A stretch of 64,000 nt of DNA from Candidatus Altiarchaeota archaeon. GTDB lineage: Archaea > Altiarchaeota > Altiarchaeia > IMC4 > SCGC-AAA252-I15. Shown piece after piece: positions 1 to 33,431 of this stretch. The notes under the pieces were generated by a model. It was not told the origin of the DNA and ran no database searches. It saw only the letters and a program-made list of their open reading frames with translations. The stretch spans positions 1-64,000 of the forward strand of contig JBDRLL010000003.1 in NCBI GenBank assembly GCA_043813075.1. The letters are read 5' to 3'. Numbering within the stretch: the stretch's first letter is position 1; every line of letters starts with the position of its first letter. The position numbers were made by a program, and so were the translations under genes.

Positions 1-1355
1 GCATAACGATAGCAATATGCGAGAGGAGAGGTTACTTTCCCATAATAGTGATGGCATTCACGTTCATGCTCTACTCTGGAATGGAAAGATTCCCAATGCT
101 AATGGACTTCAGCATGATAGGAGGATTCTATAGGACACACCAGAACACGTTAATCGCCGCACTCGCCATCGCAATCCTGCCCAACAAAGCCGTTATGGGA
201 ACACTCAACAGGATTGAGGGACGATTAAACATAAGCCTTAACAAGAGTGAGAAGGCCGTCTTCCTGCTAGGGGTGTTCATCGCATCATCCCTGCTGTTCG
301 CGCTTAACCCGGTCGACGTCCAGCGAGGGGACTACCAGACAGTACCCCAACACATCAAGAACGGATACATAGATGTGAAAGAGCCGGCAAGCCTCGCGCT
401 ACACTCCATATTCTACAGGATGATATATTCACATTTCAGCAAGACAACCGATATAATGGAATCGATAATATCATCCATCAAGTTTATGCATGCAGTCTAT
501 GGGGGGGTGTTCACCGTGATAATCCTGCTTCTCTCCGAAGAGCTATTCGAAAAAAAGACTGAGAGGGCGATATTCATGCTAGCATTACTCGGCAACTTCG
601 CGATACTATACTCCTTCCTAGGGTCCATAGACATATACGCCCCCACTCTTGTGGGGCTTACCACCTACGTGCTGTGCGCTACACGCTACCTGAACGGCAA
701 GTCAAACATCTACTGCCCATCCTTCGCACTTGCTATCGCAGCAAACATACACCTCTCAAACATGTGGTTCGCGCCAACAATACCACTACTAGTATTGCTC
801 AAGCACGGGCGCCTAGACATGGAATGCGTAAAGAAAATGACTAAAGCAAGCCTTGTGTTCACAATATCGGCGGCAGCACTGTACACGCCAACATTCATGG
901 AGGCATACCACGCATGGGACAGTATGGGAGAGAAGATGGCCTACTGGGCGGGAGACATGGGCGGGGGAGACAAGAACGCATTCAAGGCCATTGGAACCAT
1001 ATTCTCAGTGTACAACATCAACCTCATAGCAACCGAATACATTCTAATAACCATGCCAGGACTGGTGGTGGTCATCTATGGGCTGATTAAAACCGACGTG
1101 CGAAGGATAAAAGACGACAGGATACTCACCCTACTCACTGCAATTTTCCTGACATACTTAACCTACACGATAGTCCACGAAAACGACGGGCAGCTGAATG
1201 TGGACTGGAACCTCTACACCAACGCCGCGCTGACAACCACGCTATTCGGACTCAAAAACATGCGGGACAACGACCAGGCGATAATACTAAAGGCCATGAT
1301 AATAGCGGTTATAATGCACAGCATCCCGCTACTGGCAGGTCATTATTCGACATGA
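1..1355 (+). CDS. Multi-pass membrane protein, possibly GT-C-like; 5'-partial
   Basis: Frame is open from position 3 to the stop at 1355; about 10 hydrophobic segments; no diagnostic motif recognised. Confidence 0.5.
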   Translation, partial: ITIAICERRGYFPIIVMAFTFMLYSGMERFPMLMDFSMIGGFYRTHQNTLIAALAIAILPNKAVMGTLNRIEGRLNISLNKSEKAVFLLGVFIASSLLFALNPVDVQRGDYQTVPQHIKNGYIDVKEPASLALHSIFYRMIYSHFSKTTDIMESIISSIKFMHAVYGGVFTVIILLLSEELFEKKTERAIFMLALLGNFAILYSFLGSIDIYAPTLVGLTTYVLCATRYLNGKSNIYCPSFALAIAANIHLSNMWFAPTIPLLVLLKHGRLDMECVKKMTKASLVFTISAAALYTPTFMEAYHAWDSMGEKMAYWAGDMGGGDKNAFKAIGTIFSVYNINLIATEYILITMPGLVVVIYGLIKTDVRRIKDDRILTLLTAIFLTYLTYTIVHENDGQLNVDWNLYTNAALTTTLFGLKNMRDNDQAIILKAMIIAVIMHSIPLLAGHYST

Positions 1356-21645: not shown

Positions 21646-22623
21646 TCAATACACGTCCACTATGCTTAGGAACGCTATTATTGCGAACACTATCTCGCAC
21701 GCGATAAGGGTTAATACAAGGCTGCGCTCGGATATGCCCCCAGTCAGGTACATGACAAGCCTGCCGAGGCCGTAGACCTCACTCTGCTTGGGGCATACGA
21801 GCAGGTTCTTTTTCACGTCACACCAGGACTCCGCTTGAAACCTGCTCCTAGCTTTCAGATACAGTTCAGCGAAGAATGGTATTATGAGTATGACGCCGAC
21901 CTTCTCGATGTTGCCTAGAATCACTATGGCAGCTACTGAAGCGCCTATGGATAGCGTCCCTATATCGCCTATCAGTATCCTGGCGGGATACCAGTTGTAT
22001 TTTATGAACGCGAGCAGGGAGCCGAACATTGCGGAAGACAGTATGGCAGCCTCAAAACCCCCGGTCAAGTAGGATATGAGCCCTATCGTCCCTGTCATCA
22101 CCAGGCCGAGGCCGGCCTCCAGGCCGTTGAACCCGGCCAGCATGTTGGTGGCATTGGATGCGCCGGTTATGGCAACGGGCACTAGTATGAGGACGTAGAG
22201 TATGCCGAAGTCGACTGGCCCGATGAATGGGAGCGTCATGGTGGTGACCCCCGCCTTCACTGCGACAAGCGGTAGTGAAGCGAGGACAGGTAGGAGTGCT
22301 TTCGTCCTCTGCCGCATTATGAACAAGTCGTCTATCACGCCTATCAATGCCATGATGAGTATGGTCGACAAGCCTGCGAGTATGTAGGTGAGGTTCAGTC
22401 TCTCGTCAATGAGACTGAATGTTATCAAAGCGATCGCCAGCAGCACGCCGACCACGAAACCGCCGACTATTGGGAGGCCGCCCATCTCCGGGACAGAAGG
22501 CTTCTTGGGCTTGTTCATGTCACGGCCAGTTATCTTGGCTGCCTTCAGCTTAGGTATCATGCGGCCGGTAGCCCAGTAGGTGAAGGCGAATGATGCTGCC
22601 AGCACGCATATAAACGCTATCAT
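21646..22623 (-). CDS. aglH: UDP-GlcNAc:dolichyl-phosphate GlcNAc-1-P transferase (AglH/GPT family)
   Basis: GRDMNK, VPEMGG, GVIDD, NATNMLAGFNGLE, NWYPARILIGDIG. Confidence 0.85.
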   Translation of the reverse strand: MIAFICVLAASFAFTYWATGRMIPKLKAAKITGRDMNKPKKPSVPEMGGLPIVGGFVVGVLLAIALITFSLIDERLNLTYILAGLSTILIMALIGVIDDLFIMRQRTKALLPVLASLPLVAVKAGVTTMTLPFIGPVDFGILYVLILVPVAITGASNATNMLAGFNGLEAGLGLVMTGTIGLISYLTGGFEAAILSSAMFGSLLAFIKYNWYPARILIGDIGTLSIGASVAAIVILGNIEKVGVILIIPFFAELYLKARSRFQAESWCDVKKNLLVCPKQSEVYGLGRLVMYLTGGISERSLVLTLIACEIVFAIIAFLSIVDVY

Positions 22624-22657
22624 GTTGTCACCGTATATGTATTGAGTTGTTTTATAG

Positions 22658-22819
22658 AAAAAGGATGGTTGCTGTGGTCGGGACCCAAGAACCTGATCGT
22701 CAGGCCGCACCGAAACGGATATCATGCCCCCTGTTAGGGACGCAATATTAATTATCCCGCCACAGACCTGTCGAGCATGAGCGAAGGCAGGTCCTTTCGT
22801 GCACCTTTATTAAAGGTGC
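22658..22819 (-). repeat. Palindrome cluster ending in a duplicated tRNA-Gly 3' end; candidate structured RNA or integration remnant
   Basis: 22670-22683 matches 22822-22835 at 13/14; hairpins GCACCTTT-ATT-AAAGGTGC, GACCTG..CAGGTC, CCTGA-TCG-TCAGG, CCG-AAA-CGG and CCCT-GTT-AGGG; T5 tract on the minus strand at 22658-22662. Confidence 0.55.
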
Positions 22820-22821
22820 TT

Positions 22822-22895
22822 TGCGGTGGTCGGGATTCGAACCCGAGTCGCAAGCTTGGCAAGCTCGAGTGATAACCAGGCTACACTACCACCGC
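22822..22895 (-). tRNA. tRNA-Gly(GCC)
   Basis: GCGGTGGTAGTGTAGCCTGGTTATCACTCGAGCTTGCCAAGCTTGCGACTCGGGTTCGAATCCCGACCACCGCA folds as a full cloverleaf; CCA not encoded. Confidence 0.97.
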
Positions 22896-22919
22896 GTTAT
22901 ATGTTTATTTTATAAATCC

Positions 22920-23031
22920 ACCCGATTAATGCGGGTTTCACGAGCCCGAGTGATACGGAGAATAGCGGAGCTATTCGACGCGCCAAAACCCGAATGGGTG
23001 TTGTGCGACCAGGCTACACTACCACCGCGTT
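22920..23031 (-). pseudogene. Truncated tRNA-Gly-like copy with a 52-nt two-hairpin insertion in the D-loop
   Basis: 23008-23031 is identical to 22875-22898 (24 bp); 22943-22955 matches 22862-22874 at 12/13; an anticodon-like arm and the TCGGGT T-stem half follow. Confidence 0.7.
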
Positions 23032-23043
23032 GGGTATTATGTT

Positions 23044-23172
23044 GTTGTGGTGCACTCAGCCCGTGGGGCTGATGTGCGCTGTGCGTGTGCACGCAGCGCA
23101 GACATTGTCTGCGTGCGCAAGCAAGCACGGCTTGCTTTGTGGAGCATTCCGTGCCTACGCTACCACCGCGTT
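23044..23172 (-). repeat. Third copy of the tRNA-Gly 5' end followed by four perfect hairpins
   Basis: 23155-23172 matches 22881-22898 at 17/18; hairpins at 23056-23072, 23082-23095, 23097-23113 and 23119-23137. Confidence 0.7.
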
Positions 23173-23245
23173 TTTGGGAGTATTTATTTTGGCTTTAGTG
23201 TTTATATGTCTTCTAATGGGTTAGGGGGTAGGATACGACCATCAA

Positions 23246-23288
23246 AACAAGAAGATTTTATATATTATAATTTATTCTTTTATTGTAT
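23246..23288. repeat. 20-bp-period AT-rich repeat, locus 2 (degenerate)
   Basis: AACAAGAAGATTTTATATAT / TATAATTTATTCTTTTATTG / TAT, abutting the stop codon at 23289. Confidence 0.4.
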
Positions 23289-24131
23289 CTATTTCTTCTT
23301 TTTGTTGAGTGAGGCTAGCAGCTCGCTGAACCCGAAAAACGATAGCAGGACCAGTGGGAGCGCCGTTGTGCTCGGACCGCAAGCACCAACAGCATCCTCC
23401 TCAGCCCCCTCGATAAACCGGTCTACACTGGTCTTTAGTTCGCCGTTGAAGTAGCATCTCACGGACGGGTCGTCGTCAGAGGCTTCTGTGCAGCATTTAA
23501 GCTCGACATCCTTGTAGCTCTTCTTAGTGAAGTAAAGGCTGCCCCTCGCAGCGCACTGAAGCTTTGAGAAATCCCTCGGACAGACGATTCCCATGTCATT
23601 GGCTGTGCACGGCGTCCTATCCTCGACAGCACACCGATTGTCTTTGCATTGGATGCCTGACGGACACCCGCAATCCTGGCAGCAGGTCTCCTCGGTCTCG
23701 CCCTTGTTCTTCTCACACAATTGGTTGCCGCATTTGCCGACAGAATCACAGTCCTTGGCTGCGATGGCAGCGCACTTGTCAGAGTCGTCAAAACAGGTCT
23801 GGCAGAACGGGTCGGTGCAGTCGTCTGAATCAGCTCCAGGACACCGGAAGTTGGTGCATGCCTTAAGGTTATCAACACATCTCTGCAGGGCAGGGCAGCT
23901 TCCCCAAGACCATTTTAAGGCAGACCCGGGGTAAGCGGTGAAAACACATATCCTGCCCAGGTTAACATGGGTGTCATAGCAGTATTTGTCCATTTTTCCC
24001 GCGGCGTTAAAACTGCATTTCGCACAGGAATCGATAAACGAGTCCCTGGAACAGGATGACATTGCGGAGACATTAGTTACGGCAGACAATAGGGTTATGG
24101 AGAACACCAGGACAACAAGTATTACTTTCAT
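23289..24131 (-). CDS. Secreted Cys-rich protein with a CGP-CTERM-like C-terminal anchor
   Basis: Signal peptide, 29 Cys; ends GACGP, hydrophobic stretch, KKKK. Confidence 0.7.
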   Translation of the reverse strand: MKVILVVLVFSITLLSAVTNVSAMSSCSRDSFIDSCAKCSFNAAGKMDKYCYDTHVNLGRICVFTAYPGSALKWSWGSCPALQRCVDNLKACTNFRCPGADSDDCTDPFCQTCFDDSDKCAAIAAKDCDSVGKCGNQLCEKNKGETEETCCQDCGCPSGIQCKDNRCAVEDRTPCTANDMGIVCPRDFSKLQCAARGSLYFTKKSYKDVELKCCTEASDDDPSVRCYFNGELKTSVDRFIEGAEEDAVGACGPSTTALPLVLLSFFGFSELLASLNKKKK

Positions 24132-33307: not shown

Positions 33308-33431
33308 TAGCGGGGGATGGATTTGAACCATCGACCTTCGGGTTTCTTACAATTTTCCGTCAACGCTCTTGCGTGAAGCGGAATATGATTGCTATGAGCC
33401 CGACGAGCACTCCTGGCTGCTCAACCCCGCT
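33308..33431 (-). tRNA. Initiator tRNA-Met(CAT) with a 49-nt intron at 37/38 (33344-33392)
   Basis: A1-U72 pair, GGG/CCC anticodon stem, CTCATA|intron|ACCCGA, T-arm GATGG-TTCAAAT-CCATC, BHB-like junction. Confidence 0.93.

Follow-up and report, generated by a model that had tools for sequence, protein, structure and literature searches.

A tRNA-Gly(GCC) gene of a Candidatus Altiarchaeota archaeon embedded in copies of its own ends and in hairpin modules that recur across archaeal phyla

The window analysed in this study comprises 64,000 nucleotides of a Candidatus Altiarchaeota archaeon (contig JBDRLL010000003.1) and harbors on its minus strand an array in which an intact tRNA-Gly(GCC) gene (22822..22895) is accompanied by two upstream copies of its own 5′ end and by one downstream copy of its own 3′ end. 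This gene is the sole tRNA found in the array by ARAGORN as well as by Rfam (RF00005, 62 bits vs a gathering score of 29) and the only functional gene of the array; the inserts hold no open reading frame of relevant size.

Following the minus strand, the array opens with a TATA box (TATAAA, 23201..23206), by its position the probable promoter of the whole unit, ~35 nt upstream of 5′ remnant 1 (23155..23172). This remnant is formed by the leader AAC and tRNA positions 1-15 with one mismatch, the local alignment spanning -3..15. Spacer 1 (23032..23154) leads to 5′ remnant 2 (23008..23031), consisting of the leader AAC and tRNA positions 1-21 and identical to the gene. At the D-loop position of remnant 2 a 52-nt insert (22956..23007) containing the hairpin GAATAGC-TCC-GCTATTC is found, followed by a copy of raw tRNA positions 22-34 (22943..22955, TATCACTCGGGCT, repeat family D3, 12/13 or 92% identical), which is absent from the initial annotation of the locus. 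Remnant 2, the insert and this additional 13-nt copy together represent a truncated and interrupted copy of the 5′ third of the tRNA. The segment in front of the intact gene (22899..22942) is occupied by an H3-type hairpin (GUGAAACCCG-CAUUAAU-CGGGUGGAU) and an A/T-rich tail including TTTATAAA at 22916-22909, i.e. at -21 to -14 relative to the tRNA. Downstream of the gene the 3′ spacer (22684..22821) contains an H1 variant, a second hairpin and then more hairpins. It is followed by the 3′ remnant (22669..22683), which covers tRNA positions 60-73 plus a single trailer nucleotide and differs from the gene at one position (CCACAGC vs CCACCGC), and by a T5 run (22658..22662), the probable terminator of the unit. 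A public DNA run, possibly from the source sample, contains 23% of the sampled words and two short identical pieces (23027-23215 and 23255-23413).

The repeat alignment places G1 of the 5′ copies at 22895, 23028 and 23169 with spacings of 133 and 141 nt, reproducing the three starts and the periods given in the initial annotation. Within family D1 (24 nt; 3 nt of leader and tRNA positions 1-21) the segments 22875-22898 and 23008-23031 are 100% identical, as had been claimed for the middle copy, and the third copy (23149-23172) is 79% identical over 24 nt. The 3′ end, described earlier as recurring ~150 bp downstream, is repeated at a distance of 152 nt (family D2, 22660-22683 vs 22812-22835, 79% over 24 nt; also seen as CCCGACCACAGCA vs CCCGACCACCGCA), and the TATAAA (23206-23201), the TTTATAAA before the tRNA and the T5 run (22662-22658) are all present as noted. 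According to the local alignment the inner boundaries of the remnants lie in the D-arm/D-loop (raw positions 12-27) and in the T-arm/T-loop (about 51-61). Remnants 1 and 2 lack the rest of the cloverleaf, and what comes next is a complete tRNA with its own leader instead of the missing exons. In contrast to an interrupted tRNA gene, the spacers do not lie between exons that rejoin to a full cloverleaf, and repeat and fold analysis found no complementary flank pair forming a splice motif between the array pieces. Of three ARAGORN introns employed as positive controls, a strict-BHB scan retrieved only one. A relaxed Rfam scan of the region with E up to 10 gave no partial tRNA match in the spacers and nothing credible. 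Hidden Val and His tRNAs, as might be read from the loops CCCACGG (spacer 1) and UCGUGAA (before the tRNA), were rejected: the loop length varies in genome G002, position 33 is C, the acceptor is that of Gly and no T-arm follows.

A TATA box at the usual distance precedes the outermost 5′ remnant only, and a T-run follows the 3′ remnant only. With the probable promoter and terminator at its outer edges, the unit of ~520 nt is therefore probably transcribed as a whole. Elsewhere in the genome, TATA boxes are found similarly far upstream of 5′ remnants and of remnant-free tRNAs, and T-runs also follow 3′ remnants at loci L002, L007 and L008 and at the tRNA-Phe of the window's genome. Of the earlier proposal of a ~520-nt transcript cut at the tRNA ends, the single unit fits this geometry, while the cutting is unsupported, the remnants lacking the rest of the cloverleaf.

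The array is rich in palindromes. Five perfect hairpins with a stem of at least 7 bp and a 3-nt loop are located at 23137-23119, 23113-23097, 23072-23056, 22976-22960 and 22819-22801. Counting nested registers, 13 hairpins are called as compared to a mean of 0.88 in dinucleotide shuffles, 0 of 300 of which reach 13. The about ten near-perfect hairpins described before thus reduce to five perfect ones and others that are imperfect, and the excess over shuffles stands. The fold check suggested at that time reveals an array much more stable than shuffled sequences, the 521-nt minus-strand RNA folding with -209.5 kcal/mol vs -170.8 ± 6.2 for shuffles (z = -6.2).

The spacers are members, some of them degenerate, of a modular family of three hairpins denoted H1-H2-H3, in which H1 has the form NNAC-GGCUCGCUCC-GUNN and is followed by ACACGCG. 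Spacer 1 is a degenerate H1-H2 module with an H1-like GCACGG..CCGTGC containing extra palindromes (23154-23125), ACACGCA (23088-23082) and the H2 hairpin CAGCGCACATCAGCCCCACGGGCUGAGUGCACC (23081-23049). It is 91% identical over 56 nt to a unit upstream of tRNA-Gly in G002; its H2 also recurs in genomes G008 and G019, where it is part of a canonical tRNA-Thr(TGT) intron, and in G034, where it occurs in multi-copy arrays. The H3-type motif at 22899..22942 also precedes tRNA-Gly in G002 and at locus L004. In G002, H3 comes directly after H2 with no remnant between them, and remnant 2, which parts H3 from H2 in the array, was thus apparently inserted into an older unit; the H1 loop of the array is mutated and interrupted as well. 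In the 3′ spacer an H1 variant, GCACC-UUUAAUAAA-GGUGC with ACGAAAG (22819-22795), is followed by the hairpin GGACCUG-CCUUCGCUCAUGCUCGA-CAGGUC (22794-22765). The first hairpin of this spacer recurs in a tRNA-Gln intron (C26) and at loci C31 and C10, and hairpins of the type CUUCGC..CUCGA recur in introns and flanks. No recognisable relatives were found for the 52-nt insert, searched in the genome, or for most of the 3′ spacer. Each spacer has a conserved, complete left end (H1) and a variable right end, and the inserts at tRNAs measure 40-150 nt.

Both hairpins show covariation. In the H1 stem of 58 archaeal copies 99.1% of the cells are paired, with GC 27, CG 21, UA 6 and AU 4 at the outer pair, and the covariation score is reached by 0 of 500 shuffles. 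H2 is 100% paired in 13 chosen sequences, with compensatory changes in five of seven pairs. The H1 motif occurs at 69 loci in GTDB species genomes, 62 archaeal and 7 bacterial, the latter without the stem; the reversed pattern, used as a control, gave no match in 5 and in 49 genomes. The element family is carried by 17 of 49 genomes of the order and, leaving aside the window's own genome, by 12 of 20 genomes of the taxonomic family, and labelled carriers include Altiarchaeales, Woese-, Nano- and Iainarchaeota, Thermoplasmatota and Methanosarcinales. With respect to position, 2 of 64 H1 copies are inside tRNAs as introns called by ARAGORN, 5 are found no more than 12 nt behind the 3′ end of a tRNA, another 2 share 1-4 nt with a tRNA end, 7 are upstream of a same-strand tRNA, 7 are antisense and 1 is further downstream. 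Introns homologous to the array modules comprise the H2 in tRNA-Thr(TGT) and, as called by ARAGORN, H1 copies inside tRNA-Ser and tRNA-Arg. Copies are also found at protein-gene ends and inside operons of protein genes. Rfam 15 contains no matching family: 12 loci with canonical copies match tRNA only, and the window passes tRNA only. The exact 38-nt tRNA piece and the H2 hairpin pattern gave 0 matches each in public metagenome contigs, and the literature search retrieved no account of the H1-H2-H3 motif or of such arrays. Judged by eye, the modules do not fit K-turn, C/D box, H/ACA, hammerhead or integron attC readings.

Copies of tRNA ends are widespread in this genome. Searching with 13-mers, up to 2 mismatches and a reach of 450 nt, 16 of the 34 tRNAs detected by ARAGORN are preceded by a copy of their own 5′ end (9/34) or followed by one of their own 3′ end (10/34). 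Copies of opposite polarity are found at 0 of 34, and termini of other tRNAs, employed as a control, gave 13 and 15 matches in 1122 trials each (about 1%). This count of own-end copies excludes chance, and together with the polarity and the low controls it argues against random decay of tandem gene duplicates, a reading rejected here for the lack of wrong-side copies. The one-off decayed duplication named earlier as the refuting case does not describe the locus either, given the 16 affected tRNAs and the architecture shared by relatives. Among 11 tRNA-Gly loci of relatives a 5′ copy lies upstream in 2, and a 3′ copy is flagged downstream in 6, that at L011 apparently by chance; different modules occupy the same site in close relatives. 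The 5′ remnant agrees with the acceptor stem of its own genome, GCGGTGG in the window's genome and GCGGCCG in G002, which is unexpected for an inherited neutral relic unless gene conversion took place or the remnants formed independently.

Direct repeats of 15-101 nt flank 10 of the 27 element copies with enough flank for analysis, the control maximum being 11 nt, and the other 17 copies have no detectable target duplication, which is thus not obligatory. The same signature of module and target duplication is found at protein-gene ends, namely at the trpE/trpG junction and at L116 and L099, and the trpE/trpG site also bears it in a member of the same taxonomic family that belongs to a different genus (L111). 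In none of the units are the two ends paired by an inverted repeat. Accordingly, the initially proposed repeated insertion of hairpin cassettes at a tRNA att site survives in its first part, as the spacers belong to an element family that recurs at many tRNAs and in several phyla, often between target duplications. The att site as such is not supported: many different tRNAs and protein-gene ends are targeted, the duplications are variable in length, and searches of the 89%-complete genome yielded neither a tyrosine integrase nor a Y1 transposase nor a reverse transcriptase. The search for a recombinase elsewhere in the genome, proposed in the initial annotation, was negative for the Phage_integrase and Y1_Tnp profiles.

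Taken together, the layout of the array and the distribution of its modules suggest, with a probability of roughly 0.6, a single tRNA-Gly(GCC) transcription unit of a probably Altiarchaeales-related archaeon that has been invaded several times by short, hairpin-rich selfish modules of an intron type, each of which duplicated an end of the tRNA. Each invasion would leave behind a duplicated piece of the tRNA's own end. The outermost 5′ remnant would now be preceded by the original promoter and the 3′ remnant followed by the original terminator, and the inner 5′ remnant, itself interrupted, would sit inside an older unit. Processing of the common transcript by RNase P and tRNase Z would yield the tRNA, with remnants and modules as by-products. 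The favoured mechanism is an insertion coupled to a long and variable target duplication, selection keeping only those events in which an intact gene copy would persist. Several findings speak against the invasion reading: searches with the RVT_1, Phage_integrase and Y1_Tnp profiles revealed no inserting enzyme, 17 of the 27 copies show no target duplication, the 52-nt insert and most of the 3′ spacer stand without relatives, and the 5′ remnants agree with the acceptor stem of their own genome. More tentatively, H1-H2-H3 may constitute an undescribed family of mobile structured non-coding elements, shared by Altiarchaeota, DPANN lineages, Thermoplasmatota and Methanosarcinales, which colonises tRNA units (introns, leaders and trailers) as well as conserved protein-gene ends and inserts with long variable target duplications without a known transposase, integrase or reverse transcriptase.

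The alternative that survives best, doubtful as it is, reverses the order of events. An ancestral tRNA-Gly with family introns in both the D-loop and the T-loop would have recombined with an uninterrupted copy derived from another allele, from a piece of foreign DNA or from a cDNA, one junction being homologous and the other illegitimate, thereby stranding the old first exon with its intron upstream and the old last exon downstream. The D-arm/D-loop and the T-arm/T-loop are sites of non-canonical archaeal introns, and it is there that the inner boundaries of the remnants are located. The complete left and variable right ends of the spacers agree with this order of events, as do the 3′ remnants of tRNA-Phe, tRNA-Asp, a 'SeC' call and the tRNA-Gly of G001, which represent T-arm halves separated by a conserved insert in the T-loop and lie directly behind the intact tRNA. 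However, the protein-gene ends (trpE/trpG, L116 and L099) bear the same signature, and a prior intron stage would break the gene there; moreover, the intact genes beside remnants often keep their canonical intron (Asn, Asp, Phe and Thr), and RVT_1 was found in 0 of 6 element-bearing genomes, all of them incomplete MAGs.

Invasion by selfish modules also has to be weighed against a functional multi-RNA operon, in which the modules would be useful small RNAs and the remnants would be kept for RNase P, tRNase Z and the splicing endonuclease to free them. The covariation of H1 and H2 across phyla is in line with this, and the modules could indeed be functional RNAs rather than selfish DNA; their positions in tRNA units (leaders, introns and trailers) are those at which processing enzymes act, and the array folds much better than its shuffles. 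Yet an operon of this kind appears improbable in view of the mutated and interrupted H1 loop, of remnant 2 lying between H2 and H3, and of remnants unable to form a cloverleaf. The patchy carriage of the family, the exchange of modules at one site between close relatives, and the copies that are antisense to tRNAs or within protein-gene operons point in the same direction.

Even less probable is a classical integration, the remnants representing attL/attR blocks of plasmids or viruses that were later deleted to about 100 nt. Direct repeats of a tRNA end flanking an insert beside an intact gene are the textbook signature and are present in the array, the signature is reported for a 1.8-kb element of Caldiarchaeum in the published description (PMC3293823), and at the tRNA-Met of the window's genome a 1.4-kb insert with one DUF4185 gene is flanked by 30-nt copies of the tRNA 3′ end. 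Against it, Phage_integrase (PF00589), the integrase profile covered by the search, has no match in the genome, and the H1 motif has no match in 2.9 million viral contigs; inserts of 40-150 nt with conserved complete left ends at many tRNAs would demand many att specificities of one integrase. A split, multi-exon or alternatively spliced locus making a second tRNA, such as the Gly(CCC) that ARAGORN does not detect beside GCC and UCC, or a misassembly, is highly unlikely, notwithstanding the tri-split Gly tRNAs described for Caldivirga (PMC4033280), as there is no second anticodon arm, intact T-arm or cloverleaf, the 3′ remnant shows mismatches to the 5′ strands, no repeat exceeds 24 nt in a contig of 190 kb, and the architecture recurs in other MAGs.

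A 2026 census of Asgard tRNA genes calls the arrival of archaeal tRNA introns open (10.64898/2026.10.13.758758). Because one and the same family is encountered in true introns, as inserts in leaders or trailers and flanked by duplicated exon ends, the insertion events can be read directly from the DNA, and the modules may show how such introns arrive. If this reading is true, H1-H2-H3 provides a directly observable route for tRNA intron arrival and for tRNA gene fragmentation. The covarying H1 and H2 hairpins are candidates for a new family of RNA or single-stranded DNA motifs, and the patchy spread across phyla may mark gene flow among co-occurring subsurface archaea. Genomes of this kind also defeat tRNA finders, with 36 calls by ARAGORN and 20 by Rfam vs about 46 tRNAs expected, and many of their tRNA-end fragments are open to annotation as pseudogenes or att sites.

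SINEs and related non-LTR retroposons are short non-autonomous elements with target duplications of variable length, one conserved complete and one variable end, and a preference for tRNA genes. All of these properties are shared by the family of the array. In contrast to SINEs, its conserved end is opposite to that expected from target-primed reverse transcription of a sense RNA, and RVT_1 was not found in the six incomplete element-bearing MAGs, an external source being possible. Integrative elements at tRNA genes keep the tRNA intact, place a partial copy of its end beyond the insert and commonly have T-loop boundaries, as is seen here. The array differs from them in its tiny inserts, its many target specificities, the lack of a detected integrase and the presence of the module at 5′ ends and in protein genes. 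Such elements are also covered in PMC4033280, along with the split and tri-split tRNA genes of Nanoarchaeum and Caldivirga, whose pieces are encoded separately and, according to that account, are shared between Gly isoacceptors; unlike these, the array has an intact tRNA-Gly(GCC), and its pieces cannot complete a second tRNA. A high density of MITEs is reported for Ca. Altiarchaeum hamiconexum and a Woesearchaeon (PMC11602168). As far as the description given there permits a comparison, MITEs resemble the modules in being short, non-coding and multi-copy in the same lineages, and differ in their terminal inverted repeats and their short, fixed target duplications, the duplications here being long and variable.

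Similar intron sequences in different tRNA species, implying intron movement between tRNA genes, were described in work of 2010 (cited in PMC4033280 and PMC4731332). Here, too, a related module is found in different tRNAs; that work concerns a different phylum, and in the accounts cited exon-end duplications and copies outside tRNAs or in protein-gene ends are not reported. Closest to the present locus is Caldiarchaeum subterraneum, in which a 5′ tRNA fragment lies upstream of an intact or interrupted gene with inserted DNA between them, an arrangement through which, as its authors propose, introns are gained and genes become fragmented (Sugahara et al. 2012, PMC3293823). The array likewise has a 5′ tRNA fragment upstream of an intact gene and an insert between the two. 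As described, however, the Caldiarchaeum insert is 1.8 kb long, encodes a recombinase and occupies one locus, whereas the inserts here are geneless and only 40-150 nt long, affect about half of the detected tRNAs and consist of conserved, covarying modules that extend across phyla.

The intact tRNA-Gly(GCC) gene of the array lies at positions 22822-22895 of the minus strand and is called by both ARAGORN and Rfam, each giving one tRNA call in the 64-kb window. Repeat comparison on the same strand finds its leader AAC plus tRNA positions 1-21 as two 24-nt copies of 100% identity (22875-22898 and 23008-23031) and a third of 79% identity (23149-23172), with spacings of 133 and 141 nt, and alignment places a copy of the last 14 nt of the gene, with one mismatch, at 22670-22683 (minus strand). 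The three 5' ends and the downstream recurrence of the 3' end reported in the initial annotation are thereby confirmed. A 13-nt copy of raw tRNA positions 22-34 at 22943-22955 (minus strand) had been missed there; from this copy together with 5' remnant 2, the middle unit is recognizable as a truncated copy of the gene's first third that a 52-nt insert splits at the D-loop. According to a relaxed Rfam scan of the array, the remnants cannot fold as tRNAs.

The suggested folding check of the array RNA (521 nt) gave z = -6.2 against shuffles. Hairpins with 3-nt loops had been described as well, and five perfect ones with stems of 7-8 bp are present, far above shuffled sequence; the TATA box, the TTTATAAA too close to the intact tRNA and the T5 run are all as originally read. 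The listed 359-aa open reading frame of the neighbouring GT4 glycosyltransferase (21646-22725, minus strand; Pfam) begins within the array. Since homology to relatives starts only at residue 35, the true start is probably an ATG near 22622-22623, which would make the overlap with the 3' remnant spurious. The protein is 65% identical to that of a 'Candidatus Altiarchaeales archaeon' genome, 63% to that of G002 (another genus of the same family), 61% to that of the 'Euryarchaeota archaeon SCGC AAA252-I15' genome and 52% to that of a same-order genome, so that an Altiarchaeales-related organism is probable. The DNA run containing part of the window is labelled groundwater metagenome and may itself be the source sample.

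The array spacers belong to a family of elements, the better-preserved units of which follow the order hairpin H1 (NNAC-GGCUCGCUCC-GUNN), ACACGCG, hairpin H2, GCAC, hairpin H3 and A-rich tail. Spacer 1 (23032..23154, minus strand) shares 91% identity, over 56 nt, with the unit that precedes the G002 tRNA-Gly; its own H1 is mutated and interrupted, and its H2, GCGCACAUCAGCC..GGCUGAGUGCACC, sits within the canonical tRNA-Thr(TGT) intron of two genomes (G008, G019) and is repeated in tandem multi-copy arrays of another, G034. The hairpin GUGAAACCCG..CGGGUGGAU directly upstream of the intact tRNA-Gly is H3; because in G002 the same H3 follows H2 directly, remnant 2 seems to be a later insertion that split an older unit. 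The 3' spacer (22684..22821, minus strand) opens with an H1 variant (GCACC-UUUAAUAAA-GGUGC-ACGAAAG) recurring in a tRNA-Gln intron. The conserved H1 forms the left end of each insert and the right end is variable. Elsewhere in the window's own genome (G000) units are found behind the 5' remnants of Asn and Thr-GGU, immediately past the tRNA 3' ends of Thr-UGU and Val-GAC and, with no remnant present, in the Ile leader, and related variants open canonical introns (Arg, Gln, Asn, Asp).

At L093 (G034:C64:9750-10750) tandem units of ~157 nt consist of an H1 variant (GAACC-GCUAAAUC-GGUUC), the H2 of spacer 1 and H3, with 0 ARAGORN tRNAs in the 1-kb locus. Upstream of tRNA-Gly in two species of one genus (L005 in G019, L009 in G008) a common leader module of an H1 variant and a GGCCAUCUUCGGCG..CUCGAUGACC hairpin is found without any 5' remnant, one of the two leaders carrying an additional tandem H1-like hairpin; the modules downstream of tRNA-Gly differ among three species of this genus.

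Searching GTDB species genomes with the H1 pattern GGCTCRCTCCGTNNACACGYG yielded 69 loci, 62 archaeal and 7 bacterial, the latter taken as chance matches because they are devoid of the flanking stem. By record titles the archaeal carriers are Altiarchaeales/Altiarchaeota, Woese-, Nano- and Iainarchaeota, Thermoplasmatota, Methanosarcinales and one SAG. A copy is present in 17 of 49 genomes of the window's order and in 12 of 20 of its family (the window's own excluded); the reversed pattern gave 0 matches in 5 and in 49 genomes, and no copy was found in viral contigs. Invariance of the H1 loop and tail is partly imposed by the pattern. The two outer stem pairs, which it leaves free, covary (58 sequences; 99.1% of cells paired; outer pair GC 27, CG 21, UA 6, AU 4), with a score reached by 0 of 500 shuffles. 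For H2, pairing is complete (100%) in 13 hand-picked sequences of one subtype, and 5 of 7 pairs show compensatory changes. No Rfam family matches the H1-H2-H3 elements. Of the 64 H1 copies placed relative to ARAGORN calls, 2 lie inside tRNAs and 5 at most 12 nt after a tRNA 3' end, while 2 more overlap a tRNA end by 1-4 nt; 7 precede a tRNA on its own strand, 7 are antisense and 1 lies farther downstream. Several further copies adjoin visible tRNA fragments.

Direct repeats of 15, 17, 21, 22, 28, 39, 53, 60, 72 and at least 101 nt flank 10 of 27 distinct H1 copies with enough flank (control maximum 11 nt), the left repeat stopping within 8 nt of H1 in all ten. Some duplications fall in protein-coding DNA: an antisense element at the trpE/trpG junction (L122, G000:C1:1822-1944; genes identified by Pfam) has a duplication of 66-72 nt that leaves both reading frames whole, the same junction is also occupied in another genus of the family (L111), and gene starts are duplicated at two loci of a Nanoarchaeota MAG (L116 and L102). 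At L047 the trpE/trpG junction adjoins an element.

The arrays are best explained by module insertion coupled with a long and variable target duplication: modules would insert, the target would be duplicated in the same event, and only insertions leaving a whole gene would survive. In a close variant introns would come first, an uninterrupted gene copy being patched in later by homology-anchored illegitimate recombination; this fits well with 3' remnants split at the T-loop, but poorly with the protein-gene cases.

The assembly to which the window belongs comprises 41 contigs (1.8 Mb); ARAGORN with intron search gives 36 tRNA calls for it, many long-introned, and the Rfam tRNA model 20. Among the 34 ARAGORN calls no longer than 400 nt (own 13-mers, up to 2 mismatches), 9 have an own 5' 13-mer within 450 nt upstream and 10 an own 3' 13-mer downstream, so that 16 of 34 bear an own-end copy on the expected side, one or two of which (e.g. 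Ser-GCT) may be chance matches; termini of other tRNAs match in 13 and 15 of 1122 control trials. The habit is thus genome-wide, which disposes of the one-off decayed duplication considered in the initial annotation. Random decay of tandem gene copies is excluded by strict polarity, wrong-side copies (5' downstream or 3' upstream) occurring at 0 of 34 tRNAs. Remnants end internally in the D-arm/D-loop (raw positions 12-27) or T-arm/T-loop (about 51-61), and on the outer side they extend to differing points, from the tRNA end itself to 18 nt or more past it. At 11 tRNA-Gly loci of relatives a 5' copy lies upstream in 2 and a 3' copy is flagged downstream in 6, one apparently by chance; in G002 there are two copies. 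In G000 neither ARAGORN nor Rfam detected His, Trp, Gly-CCC, Val-CAC or several of the Leu, Ala and Pro isoacceptors, and the 'tRNA-SeC' call at C10:65232-65393 is probably mistyped. ARAGORN with intron search also gives a tRNA-Ser(CGA) with a 49-nt intron at 33308-33431 (minus strand) of the window, absent from Rfam at the gathering threshold.

The 5' remnants, rather than the intact genes that follow, have TATA boxes upstream at the usual distance (about 30-45 nt), and T-runs come after the 3' remnants; this arrangement leads us to infer a single ~520-nt transcript that RNase P and tRNase Z would process to free the tRNA.

A second insert family (CGCUCGG..hairpins..GAGUG) resides at T-loop position 59/60 of 3' remnants of tRNA-Phe, tRNA-Asp and the 'SeC' call in G000 (C3:125020-125119, C6:87600-87749 and C10:65130-65231, respectively) and in a tRNA-Gly copy of G001 (L008). 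L008 also contains a second tRNA-Gly(GCC) body, located about 20-190 nt downstream of tRNA-Gly; it has inserts in the D-loop and the T-loop, lacks a 5' acceptor strand and would be either a 5'-truncated copy or a split-gene piece. At L123 (G000:C24:5051-6565) tRNA-Met is followed by a 1.4-kb insert and a 30-nt copy of the tRNA 3' end; the insert carries one DUF4185 lipoprotein-like gene and neither H1 hairpin nor recombinase. The repeat signature is like that of the array, but at kilobase scale.

Reverse transcriptases were not found in six element-bearing genomes, and the genome of the window yielded neither a tyrosine integrase nor a Y1 transposase; as the MAGs are incomplete, all absence statements carry less weight. 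In Caldiarchaeum a tRNA 5' fragment and its gene are described as lying on either side of a 1.8-kb insert that bears a recombinase, an arrangement proposed as a route of intron gain (PMC3293823), and the similarity of introns between different Thermoproteales tRNAs was interpreted as intron transposition (Fujishima 2010, via PMC4033280). A high MITE density is reported for Altiarchaeum and a Woesearchaeon (PMC11602168), and a 2026 preprint on Asgard tRNA genes calls open how introns arrive (10.64898/2026.10.13.758758). Our literature search returned no description of the H1 motif, its cross-phylum spread or miniature arrays of this kind. We file the array under the known mobile-element-driven disruption of tRNA genes.
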